Assembly: GCA_963675515.1 (NCBI GenBank)
Contig: OY776328.1
Span: 1,320,001-1,352,000, forward strand
Source of the DNA: Coprobacillaceae bacterium
Lineage (GTDB): Bacteria; Bacillota_I; Bacilli_A; Erysipelotrichales; Coprobacillaceae
DNA length: 32,000 nt
Direction: 5' to 3'
Below, in pieces: positions 12,165 through 31,740 of this stretch. A program made the position numbers and the translations under genes. Below the pieces are notes generated by a model, which saw nothing but the letters and a program-made list of their open reading frames with translations, ran no database searches and was not told the DNA's origin. Numbering within the stretch: position 1 is the first letter of the stretch; each line of letters begins with the position of its first letter.

Positions 12165-12455
12165 ATGAAAATTATTGTATGTTGTGCTAATGGAGCAGGT
12201 TCAAGTCTGATGTTGAAAATGGCTACGCAAAAAGCGACCAAAGCATTGAATATCCCAGTGGAAAAATTGCACCACTGCCCGATCTCGGAAGCGAAAACAG
12301 CCGCTAGCGGTTATGATCTGGTTCTCACCAGCAATGCCTTTGTGGAAATGTTCGCACCGCTTAGAGAAAAAGGCGTTATGGTCATCGGACTTAAGAACGT
12401 CATGTCCGCCAAAGAAATCGAAGACAAACTTAAAGAAGCTGGTTTAGGCCGGTAA
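12165..12455 (+). CDS. ulaB: PTS EIIB component, ascorbate family
   Basis: 96 aa, with the active-site Cys in the N-terminal MKIIVCCANGAGSS loop. Confidence 0.85.
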   Translation: MKIIVCCANGAGSSLMLKMATQKATKALNIPVEKLHHCPISEAKTAASGYDLVLTSNAFVEMFAPLREKGVMVIGLKNVMSAKEIEDKLKEAGLGR

Positions 12456-12486
12456 AAAGAGGTCACAATTGCTAGGGGGTTAGCAT

Positions 12487-13266: not shown

Positions 13267-14303
13267 AAGCTGTAAAATACAACAAATACGAACTTAACAA
13301 GTGCTATTCCATAGCGCCGTTGAAATACAATAATGAAGACTACATTTTAGTAGCCGCCGAAAAGCAGGATGAATGTCTGCTTTTTGATTTGGCTGGAAAT
13401 CTGGTCGACACCATCTGGGAAGGTCCCGGGGGAACGATGTCGATGGTCCAGATCCCTGGAAGCAACGGGGTTTTCCTGGCAACCCAGAAGTTCTATTCGC
13501 CCAACGATTCCAAACAGGCCAAGATTGTCGTGGTGTCTCCTAAAGGAAAGGGTTGGGATGTCAAAACCCTCGTCGAACTGCCTTTTGTCCACCGCTTCGA
13601 TATTCTCACTTACAACAACGCCAATTACCTGATTGCCTGCACCTTGAAATCGGATCATGAATTCAAGGACGACTGGAACCATCCCGGGAAGATCCTGGTA
13701 GCCAAACTGCCGGATGATCTTGGCGGATATGATGAAACAAGCCAGCTTGAACTGAGCGTCATCAAGAGCGGTCTGCTCAAGAATCACGGGTATTCGAAGA
13801 TTGCCAGCCAATATGGCCAGGTGGCCCTGGTTGGAGCCAATGAGGGCATCTTCAAGATAATCCCGCCTTACATGGATGACGAGGAGTGGAACATCATTCC
13901 GCTTTACAACCAGCCCGTTTCGGACATGGTAATGGGTGATCTCGACGGTGATGGCAAAGATGAAATCGTTATCGCTACACCATTCCATGGTGATGATGTC
14001 AAGGTCCTCAAACTGATTGATGGGAACTATCAGGAAGTCTATCAGGTTCCGTTCCCGATGGAATTCACCCACTCATTGTGGGCGGGCGAAATCTATGGCA
14101 AGTTGATGGCGATCATCGGCCATCGCCAGGGTGAACGCAATATCGTAAAAATATCCTATGAAAACGATCAATACCAGACTGAAATTCTCGATGAAAATGT
14201 CGGAAGTGCCAATATCTACCTTTATGAAGTTGCCGGCGAAATGAGAATGGTTTCCACAAACAGGGAAATCGACGAGATCGGCTTCTATCGGTTCGAACGA
14301 TGA
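13263..14303 (+). CDS. Uncharacterised protein, predicted beta-propeller with one FG-GAP/Ca-binding-like loop
   Basis: ATGA start/stop overlaps at both ends (13263-13266 and 14300-14303). About 7 repeats of hydrophobic beta-strand blocks and a DLDGDGKDEIVIATPF motif. No signal peptide or TM segment. I recognise no family. Confidence 0.85.
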   Translation: MKAVKYNKYELNKCYSIAPLKYNNEDYILVAAEKQDECLLFDLAGNLVDTIWEGPGGTMSMVQIPGSNGVFLATQKFYSPNDSKQAKIVVVSPKGKGWDVKTLVELPFVHRFDILTYNNANYLIACTLKSDHEFKDDWNHPGKILVAKLPDDLGGYDETSQLELSVIKSGLLKNHGYSKIASQYGQVALVGANEGIFKIIPPYMDDEEWNIIPLYNQPVSDMVMGDLDGDGKDEIVIATPFHGDDVKVLKLIDGNYQEVYQVPFPMEFTHSLWAGEIYGKLMAIIGHRQGERNIVKISYENDQYQTEILDENVGSANIYLYEVAGEMRMVSTNREIDEIGFYRFER

Positions 14304-15166
14304 GAAACGACAAACAATATGCCCTGGGAGTTTATGAAAAGGCACTTCCCAATGAACTCTCGATTGTTGAAAAACTGGAAGCGGCAAAAATAGCTGGATA
14401 TGATTTTATGGAACTGTCGGTCGACGAGACTGATGAGAAGCTGGATCGTCTTGAATGGACACCAATCCAGCGCAAGACCATAAAGGATGCGATCCAAAAG
14501 ATCGGTGTGCCCATCGAGACCATGTGTCTTAGCGGCCATCGCAAATATCCGTTGGGATCCAATGATCCCAAGATCGTAGCCCGTTCGCTTGAAATAATGG
14601 AAAAGGCCATCGATCTGGCAAGTGACCTTGGCATCAAAATCATCCAGCTGGCGGGCTACGATGTCTACTACGAAGAGTCAAGCGAGGAAACGAAAGAACG
14701 GTTTGGCAACAATCTTAAAATTTGCGTCGACATGGCGGCCAAACGGGGTGTCATCCTGGGCTTCGAGACGATGGAGACCGAGTTCATGAACACCGTAGCC
14801 AAGGCGATGGAATATGTGAACATGGTTGATTCGCCATATCTTCATGTCTATCCCGACTGCGGCAATCTAAAAAACGCTTCAGTGACATACAAGACCGATG
14901 TCTACGATGATATCAGATCCGGCAAAGGTCACCTGGTGGCAATGCATCTAAAAGAAACCGTACCCGGAGTATTCCGCGAAGTTCCTTATGGCAGTGGCCA
15001 TATCGATTTTGAGGCCATGATTGATGTGGCCTGGGAAATGGGAGTCCGACGGTTTGTAAGCGAGTTCTGGTACGTCGACAGTCTCGACTATCAAGGCGAC
15101 CTCAATGAGGTGCGACAAATGTTCGGAGCATTGCTTGACAATAAAACGGAGGAAACTTTATGTTAG
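14300..15166 (+). CDS. ulaE: L-ribulose-5-phosphate 3-epimerase (L-xylulose-5-P 3-epimerase), TIM-barrel
   Basis: LGVYEKALP...[12 protein letters not shown]...RLEW...[13 protein letters not shown]...[11 protein letters not shown] is the UlaE/SgbU pattern. Confidence 0.9.
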
Positions 15167-15849
15167 AAGAATTGAAGAAAATAGTATATGAAGCCAACAT
15201 GGAGCTTCCAAGATATAATCTTGTCACCTTTACCTGGGGCAATGTCAGCGCCATCGACCGGGACAAGAACCTGATCGTCATCAAGCCCAGCGGGGTCGAT
15301 TACGACAAGCTGAACGTGGATGATATGGTGGTGGTCGACCTTGATGGCAAGGTGGTCGAGGGTAGATACAACCCAAGTTCGGATACCCTGACCCATATCG
15401 AACTGTATAAGGCATTTGACAATATCGGTGGCGTGGTCCACACCCATTCGCCATGGGCGACATCATGGGCTCAGGCGGGACGCGATATCCCTTGTTATGG
15501 GACCACCCATGCCGACTACCTGTATGGCGAAGTGCCATGCGTGCGCAACCTTTCCAATGATGAGATCGATGAAGGTTATGAAATGAACACCGGGAAGATC
15601 ATCGTGGCGGAATTCGCCAACCGCGACTGCGAAGCGATGCCGGCGGTCATCTGCAAGAATCATGGCCCTTTCACCTGGGGCAAGGATGCCATGGATGCGG
15701 TCCACAATGCCGTGGTTCTTGAAGAAGTTGCCAAAATGGCATGCCAAACGGAAATGATCAACAGTCATGTTCAAAAAGCGCCGCAAGTGCTCCAGGACAA
15801 GCACTATTTCCGCAAACATGGCGCAAACGCCTATTATGGACAGAAGTGA
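15160..15849 (+). CDS. ulaF: L-ribulose-5-phosphate 4-epimerase (class II aldolase fold)
   Basis: [30 protein letters not shown]...IKPSGVDYD...VVHTHS is the AraD/UlaF pattern. It overlaps the ulaE stop by 7 nt. Confidence 0.9.
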
Positions 15850-15859
15850 GGAGAATTGA

Positions 15860-16684
15860 ATGAACAATCATGATTTGAAAATCGCAGCCAACCAGATCCG
15901 CCAGTCGATCGTCCAGATGGTCCACTGTGCGAGTTCCGGACATCCCGGGGGATCGCTTTCGGCTGCCGACATACTGACTTATCTGTATTTTGTGGAGATG
16001 AATATCGACCCGAAGAACCCCAAGATGGAAGAGCGTGACCGGTTCGTCCTTTCCAAAGGGCACGTGACCCCGGCCTACTACTCTACTCTGGCCCAGCGCG
16101 GTTATTTCGATATCGCCGAGCTGGAAACATTCCGCAAGGTGGGCAGCCGCCTGCAAGGTCACCCGGCGATGCAATATATCGCGGGTATCGACATGTCTTC
16201 GGGTTCGCTGGGCCAAGGTCTCTCGACTGCGGTGGGAATGGCCAAAGCCCTGAAAATGGATGGCAAGCCCAACCGGGTCTACGCCCTTTGCGGGGACGGG
16301 GAACTTCAGGAAGGTCAGATCTGGGAAGCGTCAATGTTTGCCGGTTCGAACCTGCTTGACAACCTGACGGTAATCGTCGACAACAACAATCTCCAGATCG
16401 ACGGGACAATCGAGGAGGTCAACTCGCCTTACCCGATCGACAAGAAATTCGAAGCCTTCAATTTCCACGTGATCGTTATCGACGGTCACAACTTCGATGA
16501 AATCGCCGCGGCCTTCAAGGAAGCGCGCGAAACCAAGTGCCGGCCAACCGCGATCATCGCCAAGACAATCAAAGGCAAAGGCGTGTCGTTCATGGAAGAC
16601 AATCCGGCCTGGCATGGGACTGCGCCAAATGCGGAGCAATGTCAGCAGGCCCTGGCAGATCTCAAGAAAGTCGAGGTGGAGTAA
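15860..16684 (+). CDS. Transketolase, N-terminal (TPP-binding) subunit of a split enzyme
   Basis: GHPGGSLS, SKGH, GSLGQGLS and GDGELQEGQIWEA motifs. Confidence 0.95.
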   Translation: MNNHDLKIAANQIRQSIVQMVHCASSGHPGGSLSAADILTYLYFVEMNIDPKNPKMEERDRFVLSKGHVTPAYYSTLAQRGYFDIAELETFRKVGSRLQGHPAMQYIAGIDMSSGSLGQGLSTAVGMAKALKMDGKPNRVYALCGDGELQEGQIWEASMFAGSNLLDNLTVIVDNNNLQIDGTIEEVNSPYPIDKKFEAFNFHVIVIDGHNFDEIAAAFKEARETKCRPTAIIAKTIKGKGVSFMEDNPAWHGTAPNAEQCQQALADLKKVEVE

Positions 16685-16686
16685 GT

Positions 16687-17619
16687 ATGGCAGACAAAAT
16701 TGCGACAAGAATATCGTATGGAGAGACCCTGGTCGAACTTGGCAAGATCCATGATGACCTGGTGGTCCTCGATGCCGATCTGGCAGCGGCAACCAAGACG
16801 GATATGTTCAAAAAAGCGTTCCCGGAACGTTTCATCGATGTGGGGATCGCCGAATGCAACCTGATGGGAATCGCCGCGGGAATGAGCACCTGCGGGAAGG
16901 TTCCTTTCTGTTCGACTTTCGCGATGTTCGCATCGGGGCGGGCCTTCGAGCAGGTCCGCAACACAATCGGATATCCCCGTCTCAACGTAAAAATCGGGGC
17001 GACCCATGCCGGAATCACTGTCGGTGAGGACGGGGCATCGCACCAATGCAACGAAGATTTGGCTTTGATGAGCACGATTCCAGGCATGACGGTCATTGTC
17101 CCAAGCGACGATATCGAAGCTAAAGCGGCGGTCAAAGCGGCCTACGAAACCTATGGTCCGATGTACCTGAGGTTCGGTCGGGCCCCGGTGGACATCATCA
17201 ACGATTTCGAGGGCTATAAGTTCGAAATCGGCAAAGGAGTCAAGCTAAAAGAAGGCAAGGATATCACTATCATCGCAACCGGTATCTGTGTTGGCAATTC
17301 CCTGGAAGCGGCCAAGATGCTTGAATCCGACGGTTTGAGCGTTGAAGTGATCAACATCCATACGATCAAGCCGCTGGACACCGATATCATCATCGAATCG
17401 GCCAAAAAGACCAACCGGGTCTTCACCGTTGAGGAACATTCGGTTATCAACGGACTGGGATCGCAGGTGGCAAGTGCCCTGGGGGAAAATTACCCGGTCA
17501 AGGTAACAAAGATTGGCATGTACGATGTCTTCGGGCAGTCGGGACCGGCCAATGAACTTTTGGTAAAATACCAGCTTGATCCAGCAGGCATCTATAACCA
17601 GATCAAAGAAAAATTGTAA
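16687..17619 (+). CDS. Transketolase, C-terminal (pyrimidine-binding) subunit
   Basis: GAGGTGGAG RBS, then ATG 16687 (MADKIATRISYGETL). The ORF-track start at 16537 overlaps the previous gene and is rejected. It has the FIDVGIAECNLMGIAAG motif. Confidence 0.95.
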   Translation: MADKIATRISYGETLVELGKIHDDLVVLDADLAAATKTDMFKKAFPERFIDVGIAECNLMGIAAGMSTCGKVPFCSTFAMFASGRAFEQVRNTIGYPRLNVKIGATHAGITVGEDGASHQCNEDLALMSTIPGMTVIVPSDDIEAKAAVKAAYETYGPMYLRFGRAPVDIINDFEGYKFEIGKGVKLKEGKDITIIATGICVGNSLEAAKMLESDGLSVEVINIHTIKPLDTDIIIESAKKTNRVFTVEEHSVINGLGSQVASALGENYPVKVTKIGMYDVFGQSGPANELLVKYQLDPAGIYNQIKEKL

Positions 17620-17887: not shown

Positions 17888-20800
17888 ATGTTTATCCTGA
17901 AGAAGAGAAAAAGGTTTTTATTCACCTTATTCATGACGTTTACACTACTTATGAGCATCATGAATACAGGTGTCATGGTAAATGCGGACACCGGTGAGAA
18001 CAAGACGGATGTCCTGGATACTGAGGTATCCTTGTCCCAGGATGGGACAGAATTGACCGGGAGTGATGTCATCGACGCCACCAAGGATATAGTGGTCAAG
18101 GTCGATTTCGCCATCCCGGTGGTCGGAGATGAGCCGACGCCTGCCATTGTGGTCAATCAGGGTGATTATGCCCTGTTCGATTTCGGATCGGACTTTTCTC
18201 TTGTCAATGAGGGCCTTTTCGACCTGACTTACGGCGGGGTAAAGGTCGGAGAAGTCAACCTGGTCAACAATGCGACAACCAACCATGTCGAAGCGCAGGT
18301 AAGTTTCAACGGTGACGCTCAAGTCTACGACGGGACCTTGAACACGGTCCTGGCGGGATTCAGCGCGACCTTGCGGTATGACGGCAATGGTGCCGGTCTG
18401 GATGATGCCAACTACAACGTGACTGTATTGAACAAGACGTTCACGGTCAATGTCCCGGCAGCCACCAAGACGTACAATCTGACTAAATCGGGTGTTGTGG
18501 ACCTTGATAACAAGGTCATCAACTGGACGATCAATGCCAGCGTCGAACAGATGGGAGGGTACATTTCGCTGGCCGGCTATTCGATTCAAGATGACCTCAC
18601 CAACGTCGGTGAGCTGGTTGATAGTTCCTTCAAGGTAAACAACGTGGCGGTAGCCAACTCGGTCGATGGCAGCGGGGTTTTGAATTATGCCTTCACATCA
18701 GCTGACGGAGGGCAGGCGGCAATCACCTTCCAGACGCGCATCAGTGACAGTGAATATTACTCGCAAACTACCCACACCAAAAACAACAGTGTGACCATGT
18801 CTGACCCGGCAAGCACAATCGTCAAATCAGCGAGCGCCTCGGTAAGCTTCAGGCCGCAATGGATAACCAAATCAGGAACATCCAGCGATGCCAATGTGGC
18901 TGTCTACAACCCGACCGACCGCACGGTGACCTGGACGATTGTCGCCAATGACAATGCCGTCAACCTCCACAATGTGGTGATCAAAGATGTCTTGAGCGGA
19001 GGACTTACTTTCAATTCGGCTACCTGGGCGAAATGGGACGATGGTTCTTCCACCTGGGTCGACACGACAGCCATCACGCCTGAAAGCAACAGCGAATATG
19101 CCCTTGGCGATATTTCCAGCAAGATCCTGCTGACAATCGTAGCGAACGTTCCCAATCCGACCGGTCTGCAGGTCGTGACCGGGACAACCAACTATTCCAA
19201 CACGGCTACAATCTACTGGACCGGCAATGAAGGGGGCATCGCTTCTTCTCCAGTAGGAGTGAGTGTGGGATACAACGCCATCACCAAAAGCGGGGTGGCC
19301 AACACAAGTGAAGGGACGATAACCTGGAGTGTCAATGTCAATGCCAAGTCCCAGGCCATTCCCGATTTGAAAGTGTATGACCTGCTTATATATGGCAGCT
19401 CTAACGTGAATTTGAACCAGGTTACCGGCCTGCCAGCAGGGATCGCTACAAGCGATCTGACCCAGCGGACAAACCAGAAATACATCGAGGGATCACTGAC
19501 CAACTCGGCCATAAGCGTTGTTGTCCATCCTTTGTATATCGGTGGGACCCAAGTGGGGGAACTGCTTGAATTTGGCGGCCTGTCTACAGTTTCGACCAAT
19601 TCCTTCAGCTTCAAGACCCTTGTCACCAATCCGGATATCTACGCCGGGAACCGTTCGGTCAATGTCTACAATACCGCCAGCCTTTTTAGCGGCAACACCA
19701 GACTGAATGCAACCACCGGAAGAGTCACTTACAACGGCAGTGTCCTGGCAAAAAGGCTGATCAATTTCAATTACCAGACCAATCTTACCCAAGGGTTAAG
19801 TCACGTCACTTCCAACGGAGCTCTGGGATTCAACTATCTCGACAAGACGGTGGTCTACTATCTTGATGTCAACCGCAATTCCATGGATCTGACGAACATG
19901 GCAAATGCCAACAATTCGCTGCTAGGAGATATCAAGGTAAGCGATGTTCTCCCACAGGGATGGAGCTTTGTCGAACTGGTTTCAGGTCAGATGTTCCAGC
20001 TCTATGAAGTTGATGGGAGCAACAATTACACCCTGGTAAGTGACTTGTCGTTTCTAACCAGTGATTTCACGAGCCAATCGGGACAGGCCGATTTCACTTT
20101 CAGCCAGCTTGACAAGCATTACGTCATCCTGGTCAAGGCGCAAGCAAGCGAAGATGCCTTGAAGGACTATTTCGACGGTTCCAAGACGACAACCCTTACA
20201 AACAACATCACGTTGACAGCGGCCAATCACACTTTCAATCCCACAGTCACTGCATCACAAAATGTCCAGATCGTAAGTTCGGTGCTGGCCAAGGATTACA
20301 GCCTGGCAGCAGCCGGTGAACTTGACTGGACCATCGATTACAAGACTTACAACCTTAATCTTGCCGGAATCAAAATCGAGGATACCTTGCCTTATGGTCT
20401 GGAGCTAAAAACCGACAGCACCGGGGCCCTGGTCATCGATGGCAATATCCGGGCCTACAAGCTAAATCTCAACGCCGATGGTTCATATTCGCTTTTAGAC
20501 CAGCTGACCCTGGTGGAGGGCGACAATGTGTTCTATGACAGCGCGACCAGAACGCTGACTTTCATGATTGAGGATCCGACCAGCTCTTATCGTTTCATGT
20601 ATAAGACGGATATCACCGGTGAACCCGGAACGATTTCCAACAGCGTCCGGCTCTACAGCGACAGCGATCTTAGTGTCGATACGCAAAAAAGCTATGTGAT
20701 CACCAGACAGGACGAGTATGCGAGTTTCCAGAAAAGCGGATGGATCGAAGTGACCAAAGTCAACGATGACAATGCTCCGCTTCAAAACGTCGAATTTACG

Positions 20801-23155
20801 ATATATACGTCCGATGGATCGGTGCTAAGAAAAGGACTGACTGATGGCAGCGGAAAAATCAGGTTCAAGGTTCTTCCGGTTGGCGAATATACCTTACAGG
20901 AAACATCAAGCGTTGCCGGTTACAGTCTCATCGCGGCTACCCATACTCTAAGTGTGGTCAAGCAGGCCGACAATTCAACCGTAGCCTCGATCGATGGCAA
21001 AACAGCTAGCGGTTCGAACCTGATCACAATCAGGAACTACAGCGTTGACAATTTTGGATCATTGAAGCTGACCAAAAATGTGAGCGGGGCCGGAGTTGAG
21101 GCGAATCAGGAATATGAATTCACGATAACCCTAAGCACAAGCAATGACTACGACTACTATATCAACGGCAGCCTGAAAGGTTCTTTGAGTTCTGGAGACG
21201 CTGTAAGCTTGAAAGCCGGGGATGTGCTGACAATTCCTGGAATCGAGCAGGGGATCTCTTATGAAGTGGCTGAAAAAGACTACAGCAATATCGGGCTCCA
21301 GTACATTAGCGACAGTGCCGTCGGAACAATCACTGCCGGTGCAACTGCCGAGGTAACCTTCACGAATTCGAAAATCCCTACGGGAACCCTGACTCTTTCA
21401 AAAGAAGTGACCGGAATCCAGGGCGACCATGACAAGAAATTCGAGTTCACCATCTACTTTAAAAACAGCTCCCGGACATTCGCGTACACTGGAAAAGGTG
21501 TTAACGACGGTACGGTCACTGACGGTTCAGTCATCTCACTGGCCTCGGGACAAAGCATCACAATCCTGGATCTGCCTGAAAATCTCGAGTACGAAATCGT
21601 GGAAAAGGACTACTCTAAGGATCTCTACACCACAACAAGTGTCAACGAATCAGGTGTGATAGTAGCTGATAAAAATATAGATGCACTCTTCACAAACAAC
21701 CGCCTTCCAACCGGAAATCTGACAGTTTCCAAGGAAGTTGCCGGAGAAGACGGGGATCTGGAAAAATCGTTCGAGTTCACCATCTACCTGAAAGACTGCA
21801 CGGATTCATTCGATTACACCGGCAATGGTGTTGGTGACGGTAGTGTTACTGACGGTTCAGTCATCTCACTGGCAGCCGGTCAAAGCATCACAATCATGGA
21901 CCTGCCAGAGGGTCTCGAGTATGAAGTTGTCGAAAAGGATTATATCGATGACCAGTATTATACGGCAAGTGTCAATGATACCGGGGTCATCGCAGTCAAT
22001 GAGAATATCGATGTCCTGTTCACAAACACCAAGTTCAAGGTGGGAAGCCTGACTCTTACAAAAGAAGTGACCGGAATCCAGGGCGACCATGACAAGAAAT
22101 TCGAGTTCACCATTCATTTGAAAGACTGCACCCGGACATTCGCATACACCGGAAACGGTGTTGCTGATGGAACGGTGCGGGACGGTTCCATCATCTCGCT
22201 GGCCTCAGGACAAAGCATCACAATCATGGACCTGCCTGAAGATCTCGAATACGAAATTGTGGAAAAGGATTACTCTAATGATCTCTACACCACCACAAGT
22301 GCCAACGAATCCGGGGTGATCATCGGCGATGAAAATATCGATGCACTCTTCACGAACAACCGGATTCCAACCGGAAATCTGACAGTTTCCAAGGAAGTTG
22401 CCGGAGAAGACGGGGATCTGGAAAAATCGTTCGAGTTTTCAATCTACCTGAAAGACTGCACGGATTCATTCGAGTACACCGGCAACGGTGTCGCTGGCGG
22501 GATTGTTTCCAACGGTTCAGTCATCTCACTGGCATCTGGACAAAGCATCACAATCATGGACCTGCCTGAGGGTCTCGAGTACGAGATTGTCGAAAAGGAC
22601 TATATCGATGACCAGTATTACACGGCAAGTGTCAATGATACCGGGGTCATCGCAGTCAATGAGAATATCGAAGCGATGTTCACAAACACCAAGTTCAAGG
22701 TGGGAACCCTTACCATTTCAAAAGAAGTGACCGGAAATCAGGGCGATCCTGACAAGCTGTTCAACTTCACAATCCACTTCAAGGATTGCACCCGTACCTT
22801 CGCATTTACCGGTATCGGTGTCGAAGGTGGAATCATCACCGATGGTGATGTCATTGCGTTGGCATCAGGTCAAAGCATAACCATCTGCGATCTTCCAGAA
22901 AATCTGGAATATGCAGTCATCGAGGATGACTACACATCTTCAGGGTATACCACCACAAGTGAAAACACACAAGGTACAATAATTGGAGATGAAGATATCA
23001 ATGCCAAGTTTGTCAATGACAAACAGGTCGAAGTCAGCGAAGATGGTAACAAAACATTGGATACAGGAGATTCTAAGCTTGGCTATGCAGTCAATCTGGC
23101 TATGTTCTTTGGATCATTGGCGATGCTGCTTATTGCCCTTAAAAAGATAGTTTAA
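17888..23155 (+). CDS. Large cell-surface adhesin-like protein (Cna A-region-like N-terminal domains, one SpaA/CnaB prealbumin-type domain, six tandem Ig-like stalk domains, C-terminal hydrophobic anchor)
   Basis: Signal peptide MFILKKRKRFLFTLFMTFTLLMSIMNTGVMVNA|D. Recurrent TKSG...(I/V)(N/T)W(T/S)(I/V) strands as in collagen-binding A-domains. GWIEVTKVNDDNAPLQNVEFTIYTSDGS...GKIRFKVLPVGEYTLQETSSVAGY is CnaB/SpaA-like. Six ~110-aa repeats. The tail is LDTGDSKLGYAVNLAMFFGSLAMLLIALKKIV. Confidence 0.9.
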   Translation: MFILKKRKRFLFTLFMTFTLLMSIMNTGVMVNADTGENKTDVLDTEVSLSQDGTELTGSDVIDATKDIVVKVDFAIPVVGDEPTPAIVVNQGDYALFDFGSDFSLVNEGLFDLTYGGVKVGEVNLVNNATTNHVEAQVSFNGDAQVYDGTLNTVLAGFSATLRYDGNGAGLDDANYNVTVLNKTFTVNVPAATKTYNLTKSGVVDLDNKVINWTINASVEQMGGYISLAGYSIQDDLTNVGELVDSSFKVNNVAVANSVDGSGVLNYAFTSADGGQAAITFQTRISDSEYYSQTTHTKNNSVTMSDPASTIVKSASASVSFRPQWITKSGTSSDANVAVYNPTDRTVTWTIVANDNAVNLHNVVIKDVLSGGLTFNSATWAKWDDGSSTWVDTTAITPESNSEYALGDISSKILLTIVANVPNPTGLQVVTGTTNYSNTATIYWTGNEGGIASSPVGVSVGYNAITKSGVANTSEGTITWSVNVNAKSQAIPDLKVYDLLIYGSSNVNLNQVTGLPAGIATSDLTQRTNQKYIEGSLTNSAISVVVHPLYIGGTQVGELLEFGGLSTVSTNSFSFKTLVTNPDIYAGNRSVNVYNTASLFSGNTRLNATTGRVTYNGSVLAKRLINFNYQTNLTQGLSHVTSNGALGFNYLDKTVVYYLDVNRNSMDLTNMANANNSLLGDIKVSDVLPQGWSFVELVSGQMFQLYEVDGSNNYTLVSDLSFLTSDFTSQSGQADFTFSQLDKHYVILVKAQASEDALKDYFDGSKTTTLTNNITLTAANHTFNPTVTASQNVQIVSSVLAKDYSLAAAGELDWTIDYKTYNLNLAGIKIEDTLPYGLELKTDSTGALVIDGNIRAYKLNLNADGSYSLLDQLTLVEGDNVFYDSATRTLTFMIEDPTSSYRFMYKTDITGEPGTISNSVRLYSDSDLSVDTQKSYVITRQDEYASFQKSGWIEVTKVNDDNAPLQNVEFTIYTSDGSVLRKGLTDGSGKIRFKVLPVGEYTLQETSSVAGYSLIAATHTLSVVKQADNSTVASIDGKTASGSNLITIRNYSVDNFGSLKLTKNVSGAGVEANQEYEFTITLSTSNDYDYYINGSLKGSLSSGDAVSLKAGDVLTIPGIEQGISYEVAEKDYSNIGLQYISDSAVGTITAGATAEVTFTNSKIPTGTLTLSKEVTGIQGDHDKKFEFTIYFKNSSRTFAYTGKGVNDGTVTDGSVISLASGQSITILDLPENLEYEIVEKDYSKDLYTTTSVNESGVIVADKNIDALFTNNRLPTGNLTVSKEVAGEDGDLEKSFEFTIYLKDCTDSFDYTGNGVGDGSVTDGSVISLAAGQSITIMDLPEGLEYEVVEKDYIDDQYYTASVNDTGVIAVNENIDVLFTNTKFKVGSLTLTKEVTGIQGDHDKKFEFTIHLKDCTRTFAYTGNGVADGTVRDGSIISLASGQSITIMDLPEDLEYEIVEKDYSNDLYTTTSANESGVIIGDENIDALFTNNRIPTGNLTVSKEVAGEDGDLEKSFEFSIYLKDCTDSFEYTGNGVAGGIVSNGSVISLASGQSITIMDLPEGLEYEIVEKDYIDDQYYTASVNDTGVIAVNENIEAMFTNTKFKVGTLTISKEVTGNQGDPDKLFNFTIHFKDCTRTFAFTGIGVEGGIITDGDVIALASGQSITICDLPENLEYAVIEDDYTSSGYTTTSENTQGTIIGDEDINAKFVNDKQVEVSEDGNKTLDTGDSKLGYAVNLAMFFGSLAMLLIALKKIV
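21380..23032 (+). repeat. In-frame tandem repeat: 660-bp super-unit (two alternating 330-bp domain types, A-B) present about 2.5 times
   Basis: The sequence at 21400-21450 recurs at exactly +660 (22060-22110) and in diverged form at +1320. The 56-nt block at 21721-21776 is identical at 22381-22436. Confidence 0.9.
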
Positions 23156-23373: not shown

Positions 23374-24126
23374 ATGAACAAAAGACAAGCTAAGATATTG
23401 GAAATACTGACTGAATACAAGAAAATCGAGGTGTCTAAACTTTCGCAGTTGCTCGAGGTGTCCCAGGTGACGATCCGCAAGGACCTAGCGCAGCTCGAAA
23501 ACAGCGGGATGCTTGTAAGGGAGCATGGCTATGCCACGCTTAACGACAGTGACGACATCAACAACCGCCTGGCTTATCATTACCAGACCAAACAAAAGAT
23601 CGCAACGATGGCGGCTGGATCGATCCAGAACGGTGAGACGGTCATGATCGAATCGGGGTCATGCTGCGCCCTGGTTGCTTTGGAAATCGCTAAGACAAAA
23701 AAGGATGTGACCATCATCACGAATTCGGCCTTCATCGCCGATTACATCAGAAAGACGGGCAACGTCAAGATCATCCTGCTGGGTGGCGAGTACCAGAGAG
23801 AGTCCCAGGTCATGGTCGGACCGATAACCCGCAAATGTGTCGAGAGTTTCTTTGTAAACAAATTCTTCATCGGAACCGACGGCTTCTCCATCAACTCGGG
23901 CTTCACCGGCAACAACCTCATGCGCGCTGAGACAGTCAAGGATATGGCCAGACAGGCCAAGGAGATAATCATCGTCAGTGATTCTTCCAAATTTGCCAAA
24001 ACCGGGGTGGTCAACCTGCTGCCTACCAGTGCCATTCACAAGGTTATCACCGACAGCAATGTGCCCAATGGGGATGAGGAGTATCTGATTTCGCAGAACG
24101 TTGCAGTCGAAAAAGTTGCGATATAA
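23374..24126 (+). CDS. DeoR-family transcriptional regulator (putative regulator of the glycyl-radical locus)
   Basis: wHTH EVSKLSQLLEVSQVTIRKDLAQLE plus a DeoR C-terminal domain. I prefer ATG 23374 (MNKRQ) to the GTG at 23365 in the ORF track. Confidence 0.9.
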   Translation: MNKRQAKILEILTEYKKIEVSKLSQLLEVSQVTIRKDLAQLENSGMLVREHGYATLNDSDDINNRLAYHYQTKQKIATMAAGSIQNGETVMIESGSCCALVALEIAKTKKDVTIITNSAFIADYIRKTGNVKIILLGGEYQRESQVMVGPITRKCVESFFVNKFFIGTDGFSINSGFTGNNLMRAETVKDMARQAKEIIIVSDSSKFAKTGVVNLLPTSAIHKVITDSNVPNGDEEYLISQNVAVEKVAI

Positions 24127-24234
24127 GGTTGTCATTCCAATCAATAATTATCTACTAAACCATACGAACACTCCAGCTCCAGACAGGACGGTGTGTTTTT
24201 TTGTGCCTTTGAATAGGCGCTGACACCGCAGTTG

Positions 24235-24343
24235 AGTTTCGAATGAAATATAATTTTCTTATTTATGAAATTACATTGACAATTTATCAAGCTGTGCTAA
24301 TATTTTGGTATGTAATGAAATTTGATAAAGTTTCGAATGAAAT
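24235..24343 (+). promoter_or_regulatory. GRE promoter flanked by 15-bp direct repeats (candidate operators)
   Basis: TTGACA (24276-24281), 16 nt spacer, TGcTAATAT (-10 at 24298-24303). AGTTTCGAATGAAAT occurs at 24235-24249 and again at 24329-24343, 94 bp apart. ATGAAAT occurs five times between 24242 and 24358. Confidence 0.5.
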
Positions 24344-24356
24344 CAAGGAGAATGAA

Positions 24357-26768
24357 ATGAAGAATGTTGAACATTTTGGCGACCTGACCGTACGGATGAA
24401 TGAGTTCCGGGAAAAGGTTCTCGAGAAAAAACCTTATATCGACGCCCAAAGGGCCCTGCTGGCAACTGAGGCCTACCAGGCCAACCAGCATCAGCCCGTA
24501 GTGATGAAACGGGCCTTGATGCTAAAAAACATTTTGGAGAAAATGGATATCTATATCGAGGATGAGACTCTGATAGTCGGGAACCAGGCTGGTTCGAACC
24601 GTGATGCTCCGGTATTTCCCGAGTACACTCTTGATTTTGTGATCAATGAGCTTGACCTGTTTGAAAAACGCGACGGGGATGTGTTCTACATAACCGAAAA
24701 GACCAAAGAGGACCTGAGATCGATTGCGCCGTTCTGGAAAAATAACAACCTCCGGGCCAAGGGCGGGGCTCTTTTGCCCGACGAGGTCGCCGTGTTCATG
24801 GAAACCGGATTCTTCGGGATGGAAGGGAAGCTTAATTCGGGCGATGCCCACCTGGCGGTGGACTACCAGACAATGCTTGAAACAGGCCTGAAGGGCTATG
24901 AACAGCGGGTATTGAAGTTGAAAAGCGGACTGGACCTTTGTGTCAGTGAAAACATTGACAAGTACCAGTTCTACAAATCGGTGCTTGTCGTGATCGAAGC
25001 GGTAAAGACATTCGCTTCCCGTTATGCCAAGCTGGCCAGGGAAATGGCCATTGATGCAACCGGCCAAAGAAAAGAGGAACTTCTGGAAATCAGCCGGATC
25101 TGCTCCAAGGTACCATATGAAAGAGCTCAAACTCTCCAGGAGGCGATCCAGGCGACCTGGTTTATCCAGCTGATCTTGCAGATCGAATCGAATGGGCACT
25201 CCCTTTCATATGGCCGCTTCGACCAGTACATCTACCCTTATTACAAAGCCGACAAAGCAAAGGGAACGATAAGTGATGACCAGGTGGTCGAACTGCTGGA
25301 CAACCTCTGGATCAAGACGATGACCATCAACAAGGTCCGCTCGCAATCGCATACGTTTTCAAGCGCGGGCAGCCCGATGTACCAGAACGTCACAATCGGC
25401 GGGCAGACTCAAGACAAAACGGATGCGACCAATGAGTTATCTTATCTCATCTTGAAATCGGTGGCCCAGACAAGACTGCCCCAGCCCAACCTGACAGTCC
25501 GCTACCATCGCAATATGCCTGAAAAATTCATGGATGAGGCGCTGGAAGTGATGAAGCTGGGAACCGGGATGCCGGCCTTCAACTCGGATGAGGTGATCAT
25601 CCCATCTTTCATTGAAAAAGGCGTAAGCGAAGCGGATGCCTACAACTATTCGGCCATCGGCTGTGTGGAAACTGCGGTTCCGGGGAAATGGGGCTACCGG
25701 TGCACCGGGATGAGCTACATGAACTTCCCGCGGATCCTGCTTATCGCAATGAATGACGGAATCGACATGACAACCGGAAAACGCTTTGTCCAGGGGCGCG
25801 GCCATTTCAGGGACATGACCAGTTACGAACAGTTAAAAGCGGCGATAGACGAAGTCATGCGGGAGCTCACCAGGATGTCTGTCATTGTCGAGAATGCCAT
25901 CGATCTGGCACTCGAGCGCGATGTGCCCGATATCCTCTGCTCAGCTTTGACCCAGGATTGCATCGGACGGGGCAAGACAATCAAGGAAGGCGGGGCCATT
26001 TACGATTTCATCTCCGGATTGCAGGTGGGGATTGCCAATATGGCCGACTCCCTGGCGGCAATCAGGAAGCTGGTGTTCGAACAAAAAACGATCACTCCAG
26101 CCCAGCTTTTCGATGCCCTTGAAGACAACTTCGAGGGTGAGCAAGGCAAGAAGATCCAGCAGCTGCTTATAAATGATGCGCCAAAATACGGCAACGACAA
26201 TGATTACGTCGACAACCTGGTGGTCGATGTGTACAACACCTACCTGGACGAGATGAAAAAGTACCCCAATACCAGGTTTGGCCGGGGGCCGATCGGGGGT
26301 GTCCGCTATGGCGGTACTTCGAGCATCTCGGCCAATGTCGGCCAGGGGTATGGGACAATGGCGACACCGGACGGCCGCAAGGCAAGAACACCACTGGCTG
26401 AGGGCTGTTCACCGGCCCACAACTGCGACAAGTCCGGGCCGACGGCGATATTCAAGTCGGTGGCCAAACTGCCGACCCATGAGCTGACCGGCGGGGTCCT
26501 GCTCAACCAGAAAGTCACCCCGCAGCTGCTAAGCGAAGAAGAAAACAAGCAGAAACTGGCCATGATGATCAGGACATTTTTCAACCGGTTGGACGGCTAC
26601 CATGTCCAGTACAACGTCGTATCCCGGGAAACCCTGATTGAGGCTCAGCAACATCCTGAAATTCACCGCGACCTGATTGTCCGGGTGGCCGGCTATTCGG
26701 CATTCTTCAATGTCCTGTCCAAAGCGACCCAGGACGACATCATTTCCCGGACTGAACAGACATTATAA
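24357..26768 (+). CDS. Glycyl radical enzyme, YbiW/PflD-like (eliminase/dehydratase-type, not pyruvate formate-lyase)
   Basis: AAGGAG RBS, then ATG 24357 (the ORF-track start at 24243 is rejected). Glycyl loop RVAGYSAFF (Gly codon 26691-26693). Single-Cys loop IGCVETA (Cys codon 25662-25664) instead of the PFL Cys-Cys. Blocks FIQLILQIESNGHS, GLQVGIANMADSLAAIRKLVFEQ, APKYGNDNDYVD and DDIISRTEQ match my memory of E. coli YbiW/PflD. Confidence 0.95.
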   Translation: MKNVEHFGDLTVRMNEFREKVLEKKPYIDAQRALLATEAYQANQHQPVVMKRALMLKNILEKMDIYIEDETLIVGNQAGSNRDAPVFPEYTLDFVINELDLFEKRDGDVFYITEKTKEDLRSIAPFWKNNNLRAKGGALLPDEVAVFMETGFFGMEGKLNSGDAHLAVDYQTMLETGLKGYEQRVLKLKSGLDLCVSENIDKYQFYKSVLVVIEAVKTFASRYAKLAREMAIDATGQRKEELLEISRICSKVPYERAQTLQEAIQATWFIQLILQIESNGHSLSYGRFDQYIYPYYKADKAKGTISDDQVVELLDNLWIKTMTINKVRSQSHTFSSAGSPMYQNVTIGGQTQDKTDATNELSYLILKSVAQTRLPQPNLTVRYHRNMPEKFMDEALEVMKLGTGMPAFNSDEVIIPSFIEKGVSEADAYNYSAIGCVETAVPGKWGYRCTGMSYMNFPRILLIAMNDGIDMTTGKRFVQGRGHFRDMTSYEQLKAAIDEVMRELTRMSVIVENAIDLALERDVPDILCSALTQDCIGRGKTIKEGGAIYDFISGLQVGIANMADSLAAIRKLVFEQKTITPAQLFDALEDNFEGEQGKKIQQLLINDAPKYGNDNDYVDNLVVDVYNTYLDEMKKYPNTRFGRGPIGGVRYGGTSSISANVGQGYGTMATPDGRKARTPLAEGCSPAHNCDKSGPTAIFKSVAKLPTHELTGGVLLNQKVTPQLLSEEENKQKLAMMIRTFFNRLDGYHVQYNVVSRETLIEAQQHPEIHRDLIVRVAGYSAFFNVLSKATQDDIISRTEQTL

Positions 26769-26781
26769 AGGAGAGAAGAAA

Positions 26782-27459
26782 ATGGAATTCATAATCGATA
26801 CAGTAGATCTCGAACAGATAAAAAAGGCGGTGGAATACCTGCCAATTTGCGGGGTAACAAGCAATCCGTCGATCGTCAAGGCGACTTCGCCCGAAAACTT
26901 CTTCGACCATATGCGGGAAATCAGAGGAATCATCGGACCCGATCGCAGCCTGCATATCCAGGTCATCGCCCAGGATAGCGAAACGATGGTTAAAGAGGCG
27001 CACCGGATATTGAGCGAAATCGATGACAATGTCTATATAAAGGTTCCAGTCAGCCTGGAAGGGGTCAAGGCCATCAAGGCCCTCAAGCGCGAGGGAATCA
27101 ATGTGACGGCTACCGCCGTCTATGATCTGATGCAGGCCTACCTGGCCCTGGAGGCCGGAGCCGACTATATCGCCCCATATGTCAACCGGATCGGCAACCT
27201 TGGGGGCGACCCGATGGAACTCATTTTTGACCTGGCTTTCAAGATTGCAAGTGAAAGCTACGACTCGAAGATTGTCGCAGCATCTTTCAAAGGGGTGAAG
27301 CAGGTCAAGGATTCGCTCAATGCCGGCGCCCATGCGGTGACCGTTCCCACAGCCATCCTCGAGGCGATATTCGCCAACCCGAACATCGACAAGGCAATCG
27401 CCGATTTCAATAACGACTGGCAGGCAATGCATGGCGACAAGGGAATAAGTGATTTGTGA
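26782..27459 (+). CDS. fsa: Fructose-6-phosphate aldolase-type (FSA) class I aldolase, copy 1
   Basis: AAGGAGAG RBS, then ATG 26782 (the ORF-track start at 26677 is rejected). GVTSNPSI motif. FSA-type Gln (LHIQVIA) and Tyr (IAPYVNRIGNLGGD) at the positions that distinguish FSA from transaldolase. Confidence 0.9.
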   Translation: MEFIIDTVDLEQIKKAVEYLPICGVTSNPSIVKATSPENFFDHMREIRGIIGPDRSLHIQVIAQDSETMVKEAHRILSEIDDNVYIKVPVSLEGVKAIKALKREGINVTATAVYDLMQAYLALEAGADYIAPYVNRIGNLGGDPMELIFDLAFKIASESYDSKIVAASFKGVKQVKDSLNAGAHAVTVPTAILEAIFANPNIDKAIADFNNDWQAMHGDKGISDL

Positions 27460-27463
27460 CATT

Positions 27464-27495
27464 AGCCTCCTGCAATCTTGCGGGAGGCTTTCTTA
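27464..27495. terminator. Bidirectional terminator between convergent fsa copy 1 and the activase
   Basis: 10-bp stem AGCCTCCTGC / GCGGGAGGCT (one G-U pair), loop AATCTT, T-rich tail. Confidence 0.7.
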
Positions 27496-27524
27496 TGCAA
27501 CAAAAAAGACCAGCCGGGCCGGTC

Positions 27525-28421
27525 CTAGAAGAAACAATCTATTTTTGATTCGTTGAATATTGCCTGATATTCGTCAAGGTCTTCCTTTTGGAGGGCTTTG
27601 TGGTTCGAATAGGCGTATTCAAGGTTGAGAGAATCATATTTGCCCTGGCCAAACTGGTGGAAAGGCAACAGCTGGACCCTGTCGATGCCAAGCTGGCTGA
27701 AAAGCTCTGCGAAACCACGGGCGTCATCGAGGGAATTGTTGAAGTCGGGGATTACCGGAATCCTAGGCAGGATATTGATGCCCTGATCTTTGGCCCATTT
27801 CAGGTTTTCGATTATCACAAGGTTACCAACCCCGGTCATTTCCGCGTGCCTTAAAGAGTCATGGTGTTTGACATCGAAAAGAAGCAGGTCGAACAGGGGA
27901 GCCAGTTTTTTGAAGGTGTCCGGGCTGGCAAATCCGGTTGTCTCCAAAGCGACATGGATGCCTTTTGATTTCAATTCCTGGCCCAGCTTTTCAAGGAAGC
28001 CCGGCTGGAGGAGGGCCTCGCCCCCGGAAATGGTGACTCCGCCGTTTGATTCCTCATAGAAATCCTGATCCTGCAGACAGATGGCGACAATCTCATCGAC
28101 GCTTTTATATTCGCCTTCGCTTGAAAGAGCCTTTTGGGGGCAGGCATGGAGGCACTCAAGACAGCCGGTGCATTTAACGGGATCGATGACAATCCGGTTG
28201 TCCTTATGGCTTATGGCGCCGGTTTTGCAGGTGGCCACACAGCTAAGGCAATTGGTGCACGCTCTTTGATTCCACAGCATCTGGATTTTCGAAGATTGCG
28301 ATTCGGGATTGGCGCACCAGCGACATGACAGCGGGCAGCCTTTTAAAAAGACGGTGGTCCTGATGCCCGGTCCGTCATGGATTGAGAATTTCTGGATATT
28401 GAAGATAAGTCCTTTTTCCAT
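27525..28421 (-). CDS. Glycyl-radical enzyme activating protein (radical SAM, with auxiliary ferredoxin-like clusters)
   Basis: N-terminal FSIHDGPGIRTTVFLKGCPLSCRWCANPES (CX3CX2C). Two extra Cys clusters, CTNCLSCVATC and CTGCLECLHACP, typical of activases of non-PFL GREs. AGGAGGATG RBS. Confidence 0.95.
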   Translation of the reverse strand: MEKGLIFNIQKFSIHDGPGIRTTVFLKGCPLSCRWCANPESQSSKIQMLWNQRACTNCLSCVATCKTGAISHKDNRIVIDPVKCTGCLECLHACPQKALSSEGEYKSVDEIVAICLQDQDFYEESNGGVTISGGEALLQPGFLEKLGQELKSKGIHVALETTGFASPDTFKKLAPLFDLLLFDVKHHDSLRHAEMTGVGNLVIIENLKWAKDQGINILPRIPVIPDFNNSLDDARGFAELFSQLGIDRVQLLPFHQFGQGKYDSLNLEYAYSNHKALQKEDLDEYQAIFNESKIDCFF

Positions 28422-28581
28422 AATTGTTCATCCTCCTTATAGAAATATGATATCATTTAAAGATTCGATTGTAAATAATTTGCTTTCGTTCGAAACTGAA
28501 TTTCAAATTATGAAATTGTGAAATAATGCCGGTCTGATGATGCTTTTAGTTGTCAGCGTTTCAGTTTGGGACAAGTAAGGG

Positions 28582-28611
28582 TTGCCATGTGTTTGTTTGT
28601 CGGAGTATAAT
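28582..28611 (+). promoter_or_regulatory. Candidate sigma-A promoter for fsa copy 2
   Basis: TTGCCA (28582-28587), 18 nt spacer, TATAAT (28606-28611). Confidence 0.5.
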
Positions 28612-28646
28612 GGTTACATGAATTAAAAATTGAAAAGGGGAACATT

Positions 28647-29330
28647 ATGGAAATACTGATAGACACTATCGACCTGAAACAGATCAAAGAAGCGGTGGAA
28701 TATCTGCCGGTTTCAGGCGTGACAAGCAATCCTTCAATCGTCAAGAAAACATCACCTGAAGATTTTTTCAAACATATGAATGAGATCCGGGCCATCATCG
28801 GACAAGAACGCACTCTCCATGTCCAGGTCATCGCCACCGATGCTATGGGAATGGTCGAGGAGGCACTTACGATTCTTGAAAGAATCGACAAAAATGTCTA
28901 TGTCAAGATTCCGGTAAGCTATGAAGGGATAAAGGCCATCAAAATCCTCAAGGAAAAAGGGGTTCAGGTGACCGCGACGGCGATCTATGACCTGATGCAG
29001 GCTTATCTGGCCCTGGAGGCGGGAGCCGATTACCTGGCACCTTATGTCAACCGGATCGGGAACCTGGGCGGTGATCCGATGGAGCTTATCGACAATCTCG
29101 CGATGAAGATCGCCAGCGAAAATTACGAGGCCAAGATCGTGGCAGCCAGCTTCAAAGGCGTGGAACAGGTCAAACAGTCGCTCAATTTCGGGTCCCATGC
29201 GATAACCGCACCGGTGGAAATCCTCAAGGCGGTATTTGCGAATCCGAACATCGACAAGGCTGTGAAAGATTTCAACAGCGACTGGCACGATGTCTATGGC
29301 CAAGGTGTCTTATTGAACGATCTAAAATAA
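28647..29330 (+). CDS. fsa: Fructose-6-phosphate aldolase-type (FSA) class I aldolase, copy 2
   Basis: AAGGGGAA RBS. Same FSA-type Gln (LHVQVIA) and Tyr (LAPYVNRIGNLGGD). Roughly 70 percent identical to copy 1 by hand alignment. Confidence 0.9.
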   Translation: MEILIDTIDLKQIKEAVEYLPVSGVTSNPSIVKKTSPEDFFKHMNEIRAIIGQERTLHVQVIATDAMGMVEEALTILERIDKNVYVKIPVSYEGIKAIKILKEKGVQVTATAIYDLMQAYLALEAGADYLAPYVNRIGNLGGDPMELIDNLAMKIASENYEAKIVAASFKGVEQVKQSLNFGSHAITAPVEILKAVFANPNIDKAVKDFNSDWHDVYGQGVLLNDLK

Positions 29331-31038: not shown

Positions 31039-31740
31039 ATGGATTTCAAGATAGATCTGACCCTAAACAAAAACAATTACCCACGGAAGGTTTTCTTCTG
31101 CATTTTTGGCCTGTTCATCTCGGCCTTTGGGATGAGCTTGCTGATAAAATCGGCCCTGGGGCAAAGCACGGTTTCAGCCCTGGCATACAACATTTCCATG
31201 GTTTCTAACATCAAGACCGGGACTATAGTCGCCTATGTGAACTACCTTTGTTTGATCGGCCAGGTCATCCTGCTTAAAAGGGATTTCAGACCATTCCAGC
31301 TCTTGCAGCTGGCGATAACCTTCCTTTTTGGAGTGATGGTGAATTTCTTTCTCTATGATTTTCCATTCACCACCAATTTGACATTGCCTGGCTACCCGCT
31401 CCAGGCGGTTGCCTTCCTGGTTGGAATTGTCATCATGTCCTTCGGGGTGGCTTTTGTCTTCGTTGCCGATTTTGTCTTTTTGCCTTTCGAGGGATTCTGC
31501 AAGCTGCTTGCCAGCCATTTCAGCCTGCCCTTTGGCAAGCTGCGAGTGGGGATCGACTCGTCATTGGTTGTCATCTCGCTGGTACTCATATACATCCAAA
31601 ACCTGCCCAACACCTCGATCAGGGAAGGGACCATTCTCTACGCCCTGGCCTTTGGCTTTTTGATCAACTTTTTTACAACCAATCTCAACAAGCTCAAGAT
31701 CTTCCAGCAACTCAATCTAAGCAAAAGCAGCCAACCGTAA
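31039..31740 (+). CDS. Integral membrane protein (YczE/YyaS/YitT-like, unverified)
   Basis: AAGGAG RBS. The 233-aa product has about 6 TM helices, with N-terminal RKVFFCIFGLFISAFGMSLLIKSALGQS typical of this family as I recall it. Confidence 0.75.
   Translation: MDFKIDLTLNKNNYPRKVFFCIFGLFISAFGMSLLIKSALGQSTVSALAYNISMVSNIKTGTIVAYVNYLCLIGQVILLKRDFRPFQLLQLAITFLFGVMVNFFLYDFPFTTNLTLPGYPLQAVAFLVGIVIMSFGVAFVFVADFVFLPFEGFCKLLASHFSLPFGKLRVGIDSSLVVISLVLIYIQNLPNTSIREGTILYALAFGFLINFFTTNLNKLKIFQQLNLSKSSQP

Follow-up and report, generated by a model that had tools for sequence, protein, structure and literature searches.

A glycyl radical enzyme locus with two aldolase genes in a Coprobacillaceae bacterium: a probable Gram-positive counterpart of the Escherichia coli YciT-YbiY-YbiW-FsaA regulon

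Which reaction is carried out by a glycyl radical enzyme (GRE) whose gene lies beside two genes for aldolases of the fructose-6-phosphate aldolase (FSA) type? We examined such a locus in a 32-kb stretch of the genome of a Coprobacillaceae bacterium (contig OY776328.1; the whole stretch is called the window below), taking its genes from the open reading frame (ORF) listing. Five genes follow one another in the order DeoR-family regulator, GRE, FSA1, activase (on the reverse strand) and FSA2, with murI downstream of FSA2. An earlier reading of this DNA (the sequence-only reading) had proposed a radical, aldolase-coupled sugar-phosphate module related to YbiW and FsaA of Escherichia coli, and the membership of the GRE in the YbiW clade together with its linkage to FSA genes supports that proposal. 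We put the probability at about 75% that the locus is the Gram-positive ortholog set of the E. coli YciT-YbiY-YbiW-FsaA 'anhydroglycolysis' regulon. The five genes and the motifs quoted for them were recovered by ORF listing and motif search where they had been placed. It had gone unremarked that the two aldolase genes flank the activase gene and are read from the other strand.

In E. coli, YbiW converts 1,5-anhydroglucitol-6-phosphate (AG6P) to 1-deoxy-fructose-6-phosphate (PMC13450708, section 5.7; PMC12441222, section 5.1), which aldolases split into glyceraldehyde-3-phosphate and hydroxyacetone (PMC13450708). The substrate is phosphorylated by the phosphotransferase system (PTS) (PMC12441222). 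This pathway is that of Ma et al. (JACS 2024), cited here through the summaries in PMC13450708 and PMC12441222. The chemistry that the sequence-only reading gave for YbiW and PflD is correct according to a review (PMC13450708, section 5.7).

We assessed the class of the GRE by its motifs and by family models. Its glycyl loop, RVAGYS, starts at residue 776 with the glycine at 779, and its catalytic loop, GCVE, starts at residue 435 and provides Cys436 and Glu438, with a single cysteine. Close homologues carry PF02901 and PF01228, and the protein scored 911 bits with TIGR01774 (NCBIfam cut-off 678). An RVxG[FYW] loop, a mid-sequence Cys loop and the PF02901 plus PF01228 architecture identify it as a GRE of the pyruvate formate-lyase (PFL)-like kind. 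PFL itself was ruled out, as had been claimed from the catalytic loop, by the single Cys in place of Cys-Cys and by a TIGR01255 score of 180 bits, far below the cut-off of 994. No functional equivalog model in NCBIfam scored above its cut-off for this protein.

For comparison, a scan of one genome per species yielded 80 loci with GREs 58-90% identical to that of the window, from Erysipelotrichaceae, Lachnospiraceae, Clostridium, Enterococcus, Streptococcus, Coriobacteriia and others; these were annotated by crude gene calling and BLAST against a reference panel. When solved structures were searched (phmmer against the PDB), the best characterised match to the GRE was E. coli YbiW (8id7, 847 bits), followed by glycerol dehydratase (606), propanediol dehydratase (558), CutC (512), PflD (495), HypD (440) and PFL (157 bits). 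In a trimmed alignment of 85 GREs, identity was 49.3% to YbiW, 40.6% to glycerol dehydratase and 37.5% to PflD. A neighbour-joining (NJ) tree from the same alignment, without bootstrap, placed YbiW and 79 Gram-positive GREs in one group, sister to glycerol dehydratase plus 9rco. Closest to YbiW among characterised GREs, in one NJ clade with it, and with FSA and activase genes alongside, the window enzyme is of YbiW type and probably a YbiW-clade GRE isomerase. The sequence-only reading had suggested placing the GRE among characterised GREs; this check put it in the YbiW clade, apart from PFL, glycerol dehydratase and CutC.

By alignment, the counterparts of Cys436 and Glu438 in YbiW are Cys441, the thiol that abstracts hydrogen, and Glu443, the base for the C2-OH of AG6P (2026 review, PMC13450708, section 5.7). 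Within the Gram-positive clade 325 columns are at least 97% conserved; YbiW matches 264 of these, glycerol dehydratase 202 and PflD 195, and 56 clade-invariant columns are common to YbiW alone. The YbiW-only columns cluster beside His165 and within SAGSP, VRYH, an extended Cys loop (TAVxGKWGYRCTGMS), SGLQ, GTSSI and GGVLL. In the window GRE they include D163 and A164 (beside His165), S336, S339, Y383, H384, N409, the Cys loop from A440 to S453 (with W445, Y447 and R448), S553, L555, Q556, T654 to I657, G712 and V714. The Cys loop also has a two-residue insertion of the YbiW type. We take the segments rich in YbiW-only columns to belong to the active site.

Both aldolases passed the FSA equivalog model NF009299 (NCBIfam cut-off 214 bits), FSA1 with 297.5 and FSA2 with 288.9 bits. 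In a MAFFT alignment, both proteins have Asp6, Gln59, Lys85, Thr109 and Tyr131 (E. coli FsaA numbering). The Schiff-base Lys85, Asp6, the replacement of the transaldolase Glu/Phe by Gln59/Tyr131 and the model scores together mark both as FSA, and the FSA-specific Gln and Tyr noticed earlier in these 225-227-aa proteins are indeed Gln59 and Tyr131. The two are 72% identical to each other and fall in NCBIfam subfamily NF009299, not in the FsaA/FsaB-type NF009296, with 36-38% identity to FsaA. A further paralog in the window, at 11496, had been credited with the transaldolase Phe and Glu. The Phe stands in the Tyr131 column as claimed; the Glu precedes the Gln59 column of the MAFFT alignment by two columns and, after re-alignment by hand, is taken to be the transaldolase catalytic Glu.

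The activase has three Cys motifs, CX3CX2C at residue 29 and CX2CX2CX3C at both residue 55 and residue 84; the latter two confirm the auxiliary ferredoxin-like clusters attributed to it. Together with a TIGR02494 score of 346 bits (NCBIfam cut-off 174), these motifs identify it as a GRE-activating radical SAM enzyme with auxiliary clusters. With E. coli YbiY it shares 37% identity.

The regulator, located upstream of the GRE gene as previously reported, shares 40% identity with E. coli YciT along its full length, and YciT was also its best NCBIfam model (229.8 bits, under that model's 450-bit cut-off). A 12-mer, TTTCGAATGAAA, occurs exactly and twice at the GRE promoter (24237-24248 and 24331-24342), in the two predicted operator boxes of Table 1. 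The order box, promoter, box, ribosome-binding site is kept in three relatives (L002, L003 and L005), as is the core TT[TA]CGAATGAAA at the position of box 1; L002 is an Erysipelotrichaceae metagenome assembly with a GRE 90% identical to that of the window. Across 77 loci the 12-mer core, with up to one mismatch, was found at 1.44 sites per kb between -400 and +150 of the GRE start versus 0.030 per kb elsewhere, a 48-fold enrichment, and 56 of the 61 near-start sites were on the GRE sense strand. As an Rfam scan of the window returned three tRNAs only, with no riboswitch or other family at the locus, we read the conserved boxes as protein operators.

The same 12-mer is present, again exactly, at three sites in the E. 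coli K-12 ybiU-ybiV-ybiW-ybiY/fsaA region (L001, 18 kb; 7080-7091 on the minus strand, 8100-8111 and 11548-11559 on the plus strand). These sites lie 5' of ybiU, 5' of ybiV and in the spacer between ybiY and fsaA, and a search of the E. coli pflD region found no copy. They coincide with published binding regions of YciT, a DeoR-family protein with ChIP-exo peaks in the ybiU-V-W-Y/fsaA region (PMC8464067) that binds and represses ybiYW (bioRxiv 10.1101/2025.05.13.653802). By operator sequence, therefore, the window GRE promoter would belong with the E. coli targets of YciT. Because YciT is the best model for the regulator, the two proteins are 40% identical and the 12-mer is the same, the regulator-operator pair appears to be conserved between Enterobacteria and Bacillota, which would be independent support for orthology of the whole module.

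Streptococci may extend this picture. A 'PflR' site was predicted 5' of SP0245, SP0246 and SP0251 of Streptococcus pneumoniae (PMC3302838), and we infer that these sites belong to the same regulon. The sequences suggest that YciT, streptococcal 'PflR' and the window DeoR protein govern one cross-phylum regulon of the anhydro-sugar pathway. One regulator type and an identical operator word would then tie together YciT, the physiological role of which has so far been unclear, the 'PflR' regulon and the window module; we therefore predict that anhydro-sugar phosphates are the effectors of YciT and PflR.

The arrangement of transcription units was deduced from promoters and terminators that are consensus matches only. 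An AAGGAG ribosome-binding site lies 7 nt 5' of the GRE start. The GRE-FSA1 unit closes at a strong hairpin, and the activase gene, which converges on it, ends at its own hairpin (Table 1). An operator-like box, GTTTCGAACGAAAG at 28483-28496, has two mismatches to GTTTCGAATGAAAT and adjoins the activase promoter.

Relatives most often have the layout DeoR gene, divergent activase gene, GRE gene and FSA gene, and this bare set was the commonest among the 80 loci. Counting genes within five genes of the GRE, an FSA gene was found in 54 of the 80 loci, a DeoR gene in 51 and a GldA homologue in 20. Gram-positive bacteria thus commonly have just the minimal set of regulator, activase, GRE and aldolase. 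In E. coli, the ybiW locus consists only of ybiV, ybiW, ybiY and fsaA. The sequence-only reading had treated the missing PTS, kinase and reductase as distinctive; as the ybiW locus and most of the relatives have none of them either, such absence is common and does not distinguish the window locus.

Some relatives carry more. A ROK-family kinase gene directly follows GRE-FSA in at least seven loci (including L014, L017, L033, L072 and L078), and an aldo-keto reductase with a 4Fe-4S dicluster domain lies beside the module in five (L021, L023, L025, L058 and L067). These additions are possibly variants for ATP-dependent entry and for reduction of hydroxyacetone (or anhydrofructose). Streptococcal loci, the SP0245-SP0253 region of S. 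pneumoniae among them, combine activase, DeoR 'PflR', a SorC-type regulator, a Lac/cellobiose-family PTS (IIA, IIB and IIC), GRE, FSA and GldA. They share with the window the Gram-positive GRE clade (72% identity), the FSA subfamily, the DeoR type and related operator boxes, and differ from it by their dedicated PTS, second regulator and glycerol/hydroxyacetone dehydrogenase. In S. anginosus, homologues of the PTS, GRE, fsaA and gldA genes appear together among differentially expressed genes, with tabulated differences of 30- to 146-fold (PMC12282319).

Compared with the E. coli ybiY-ybiW/fsaA genes and YciT, the window has a GRE of the same clade with the CXE motif and the clade-specific catalytic segments, a YbiY-type activase, an adjacent FSA-type aldolase, a YciT-type regulator and the identical operator 12-mer. 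The differences are of arrangement and content. The regulator gene is adjacent in the window, whereas yciT is unlinked in E. coli, and the window has two aldolase genes instead of one, both NF009299 and not NF009296. The window activase gene lies downstream of and convergent with GRE-FSA1, whereas the E. coli activase gene is co-transcribed upstream of the GRE; ybiV (a phosphatase gene) and ybiU have no counterpart in the window. The second E. coli neighbourhood of GRE, activase and FSA genes, pflD-pflC near fsaB, was checked along with ybiW-ybiY-fsaA, and both are as had been claimed. The pflD locus, which serves a 1,5-anhydromannitol-6-phosphate lyase pathway, likewise runs from a GRE isomerase through FSA to hydroxyacetone. 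Unlike the window locus, it includes frwCBD, ptsA and gldA beside fsaB, its GRE is outside the YbiW clade and it has no TTTCGAATGAAA box.

On these grounds we propose the following course for the pathway. 1,5-Anhydroglucitol or a close 1,5-anhydrohexitol would be imported and phosphorylated at C6 by general PTS or kinase genes unlinked to the locus. The sugar phosphate, as presumed effector, would free the YciT-like DeoR repressor from the TTTCGAATGAAA boxes at the GRE and activase promoters. The radical SAM activase, in keeping with the motifs seen, would install a radical on Gly779 of the GRE. By homology with YbiW, the Cys436 thiyl radical would then take a hydrogen from C2 and Glu438 would deprotonate the C2-OH; the ring C1-O5 bond would break, and return of the hydrogen would give 1-deoxy-fructose-6-phosphate. 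FSA1, FSA2 or both would cleave this product through a Schiff base on Lys85 to glyceraldehyde-3-phosphate and hydroxyacetone, and the latter would be reduced or excreted via enzymes encoded elsewhere. The window enzyme would accordingly be expected to use the same substrate as YbiW or a very similar one, and anhydroglycolysis would extend to an Erysipelotrichaceae-like gut bacterium.

The second aldolase gene raises the question of how this layout arose. The duplication pointed out by the sequence-only reading is real and rare: two FSA genes, with the order DeoR, GRE, FSA1, activase (reversed) and FSA2, were found in two of the 80 loci, the window and L002 only, and the ula-like genes 5' of the module are syntenic between these two. 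FSA1 and FSA2 fall within one Erysipelotrichaceae, GRE-associated subclade of the FSA tree. The spacer between the activase and FSA2 genes (28422-28646) aligns with the divergent activase-GRE control region of L003 (9822-10000), L005 and L075. Its box at 28483-28496 matches box 1 of those control regions, and the box 2 position holds a degenerate remnant. Pairwise alignment of the DeoR-GRE and activase-FSA2 spacers was weakly informative, and their homology became clear once relatives were added. We infer a tandem duplication of a unit of divergent activase gene, control region, GRE gene and FSA gene, followed by loss of the activase gene from the first copy and of the GRE gene from the second. 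Tandem duplication with reciprocal loss would be the simplest and best account of the layout, and the duplicated aldolase seems to be a remnant of that event and not to signal new chemistry.

Between the window and L002, dN/dS was 0.075 for the GRE, 0.09 for the DeoR protein, 0.10 for FSA2, 0.18 for FSA1 and 0.19 for the activase, with dS of 0.7-1.2. All five genes are under purifying selection, and both aldolases are therefore maintained. In the same comparison, DNA identity was 65-77% over FSA1 and the activase (26751-28550), 75-90% over the GRE and 79-88% over most of FSA2. The dip over FSA1 and the activase could be due to relaxed constraint, as in their dN/dS of 0.18-0.19, or to a recombined segment.

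Several observations weigh against the assignment to anhydroglycolysis or against parts of it. Among the clade-invariant columns of the GRE, 61 differ from YbiW, and some differences are close to catalytic segments (GCVE in the window clade vs GCIE in YbiW, ANVGQG vs ANVPFG, SPAHN vs SPASG). Judging from the alignment and tree, the Gram-positive clade, with its 49% identity to YbiW, is a distinct, long-branched subfamily. Given this identity and the 61 differences, the substrate may be AG6P, its C2 epimer or another anhydro-sugar. The 32-kb window has no gene for uptake, phosphorylation or hydroxyacetone reduction. With a promoter of its own that lacks an intact operator, FSA2 has a putative role in the pathway. 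The FSA tree (NJ, no bootstrap) puts FSA2 outside a group of FSA1 and Thomasclavelia sequences, a position that fits an older duplication or a transfer, and fits a recent tandem event less simply.

One alternative is that FSA2 stands outside the pathway, as a constitutive, general fructose-6-phosphate/dihydroxyacetone aldolase left there by rearrangement. We regard this as possible and somewhat doubtful. The FSA2 promoter is strong and separate and its -10 region is kept in L002, no intact operator box was found on it, the box 2 homologue being degenerate, and the activase-FSA2 spacer of L002 has no box at up to one mismatch; FSA2 may thus escape the repressor, since its promoter is its own and bears no intact box. 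Against this, FSA2 belongs to the GRE-associated FSA subclade, and it has been kept beside the activase gene in both genomes under strong purifying selection.

A second alternative keeps the radical chemistry and changes the substrate, for example to the mannitol epimer or to a related deoxy- or anhydro-sugar phosphate, with the two aldolases specialised by product or by expression. The distance from YbiW in identity and in clade-invariant positions would allow it, as would the 72% identity of FSA1 and FSA2 and their separate promoters, and the Lac/cellobiose-family PTS of the streptococcal relatives (SP0245-SP0253 in S. pneumoniae) had no identifiable substrate in 2012 (PMC3302838). We nevertheless find it unlikely. 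A YciT-type regulator and an identical 12-mer are shared with E. coli ybiW and absent at the pflD locus, which argues for the effector and substrate class of YbiW, and every clade-specific catalytic segment matches YbiW. Pairing with FSA, moreover, demands a product with the D-threo configuration at positions 3 and 4, as FSA stereochemistry requires. It seems rather improbable, too, that the Gram-positive YbiW-like clade acts on a different anhydro- or deoxy-sugar phosphate and that the aldolase pair reflects two distinct cleavage tasks and not redundancy.

The B12-independent glycerol dehydratase DhaB1 of Clostridium butyricum (PDB 1R8W/1R9D) belongs to the sister GRE branch and shares the fold family and the CXE motif with the window GRE; it differs in Cys-loop length and pocket residues and has no aldolase linkage. 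We take its pocket to comprise His164, Ser282, Cys433, Glu435, Asp447 and Tyr640 (1R9D); the equivalents of Asp447 and Tyr640 are Gly451 and Ser655 in the window GRE, as in YbiW. That the GRE acts, independently of B12, as a dehydratase of glycerol or 1,2-propanediol and has unrelated aldolase neighbours is highly improbable: glycerol dehydratase is the second-best solved relative and the CXE motif is common to eliminases, but the window GRE lies outside the branch of glycerol dehydratase and 9rco, has the YbiW-like residues at these two pocket positions and the YbiW-type Cys-loop insertion, is linked to FSA genes across most of the relatives, and has no 1,3-propanediol dehydrogenase or microcompartment genes near it in the window.

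The assignment to the YciT-YbiY-YbiW-FsaA regulon bears on a condition set by the sequence-only reading, namely that the pathway idea would stand and the claim of novelty would fall if the enzymes behaved like YbiW and FsaA. The evidence appears to point that way, so that the pathway idea is retained and the novelty mostly lost. As a member of a known and widespread pathway the locus is fairly ordinary, unusual only in its second aldolase and relocated activase gene; what novelty remains lies in what the Gram-positive clade acts on and in what the second aldolase does.

Table 1. Positions of the genes and predicted control elements of the GRE locus, numbered from the first nucleotide of the window
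Feature	Position	Strand	Basis or remark
DeoR-family repressor, YciT/'PflR'-type	23374-24126	+	Best NCBIfam model YciT; 40% identity to E. coli YciT
Predicted operator box 1, 14-mer GTTTCGAATGAAAT	24236-24249	+	Exact repeat of box 2; just 5' of the GRE -35 hexamer
GRE-FSA1 operon promoter, sigma-70-type (TTGACA, 16 nt spacer, TAATAT, TG extension)	24276-24303	+	10/12 consensus matches
Predicted operator box 2, 14-mer GTTTCGAATGAAAT	24330-24343	+	Between promoter and ribosome-binding site
GRE, 803 aa, YbiW clade, predicted 1,5-anhydrohexitol-6-phosphate C-O lyase (isomerase)	24357-26768	+	phmmer, identity, NJ tree
FSA1, 225 aa, fructose-6-phosphate-aldolase-type class I aldolase	26782-27459	+	NF009299; intact catalytic residues
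Two back-to-back intrinsic terminators of the convergent FSA1 and activase genes	27464-27526	27464-27489 (+), 27526-27506 (-)	Strong hairpin at the GRE-FSA1 end; own hairpin at the activase end
Activase, 298 aa, radical SAM, two auxiliary 4Fe-4S motifs	27525-28421	-	TIGR02494; Cys motifs
Activase promoter (TTTACA, 17 nt spacer, TATCAT) and adjacent operator-like box	28447-28496	-	Consensus scan
FSA2 promoter, separate, strong (TTGCCA, 18 nt spacer, TATAAT)	28582-28611	+	11/12 consensus matches
FSA2, 227 aa, second FSA-type aldolase	28647-29330	+	NF009299; intact catalytic residues

Elsewhere in the window, an ascorbate-like PTS cluster occupies 8465-17619 (+). It encodes a UlaG-like metallo-beta-lactamase, EIIA, EIIC-GAT, a transaldolase-type TalC, EIIB (12165-12455), a DeoR regulator of its own, UlaE-like and UlaF-like epimerases and a split transketolase. 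No recognisable UlaD decarboxylase was found in this cluster; a 346-aa protein without a Pfam match (13263-14303) is encoded where UlaD might be expected. The cluster was considered as a feeder of the GRE and rejected: a separate DeoR regulator and a self-consistent pentose route belong to it, and only in this lineage does it adjoin the module.

Between this cluster and the DeoR gene, at 17888-23155 (+), lies the gene for a 1755-aa surface protein. Besides a signal peptide and a membrane anchor at the C-terminus, this protein contains six DUF7601 repeats, two DUF5979 domains and one SpaA domain, and it gives a weak collagen-binding match. In L002 nothing separates the transketolase genes from the DeoR gene, and the surface protein gene is therefore an insertion/deletion difference between the two lineages. 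Two membrane proteins are encoded at 4241-5512 (+; DUF1576) and 31039-31740 (+; DUF6198); the DUF6198 gene lies about 1.7 kb 3' of FSA2, after murI, with no link to the module. A 367-aa protein encoded at 5529-6632 (-) has a prepilin N-terminal methylation motif and a long middle part rich in Ser, Thr, Asn and Asp. The three tRNAs form a cluster at 1820-2173 (-), with the specificities Asp-GTC, Ser-GCT and Lys-CTT.

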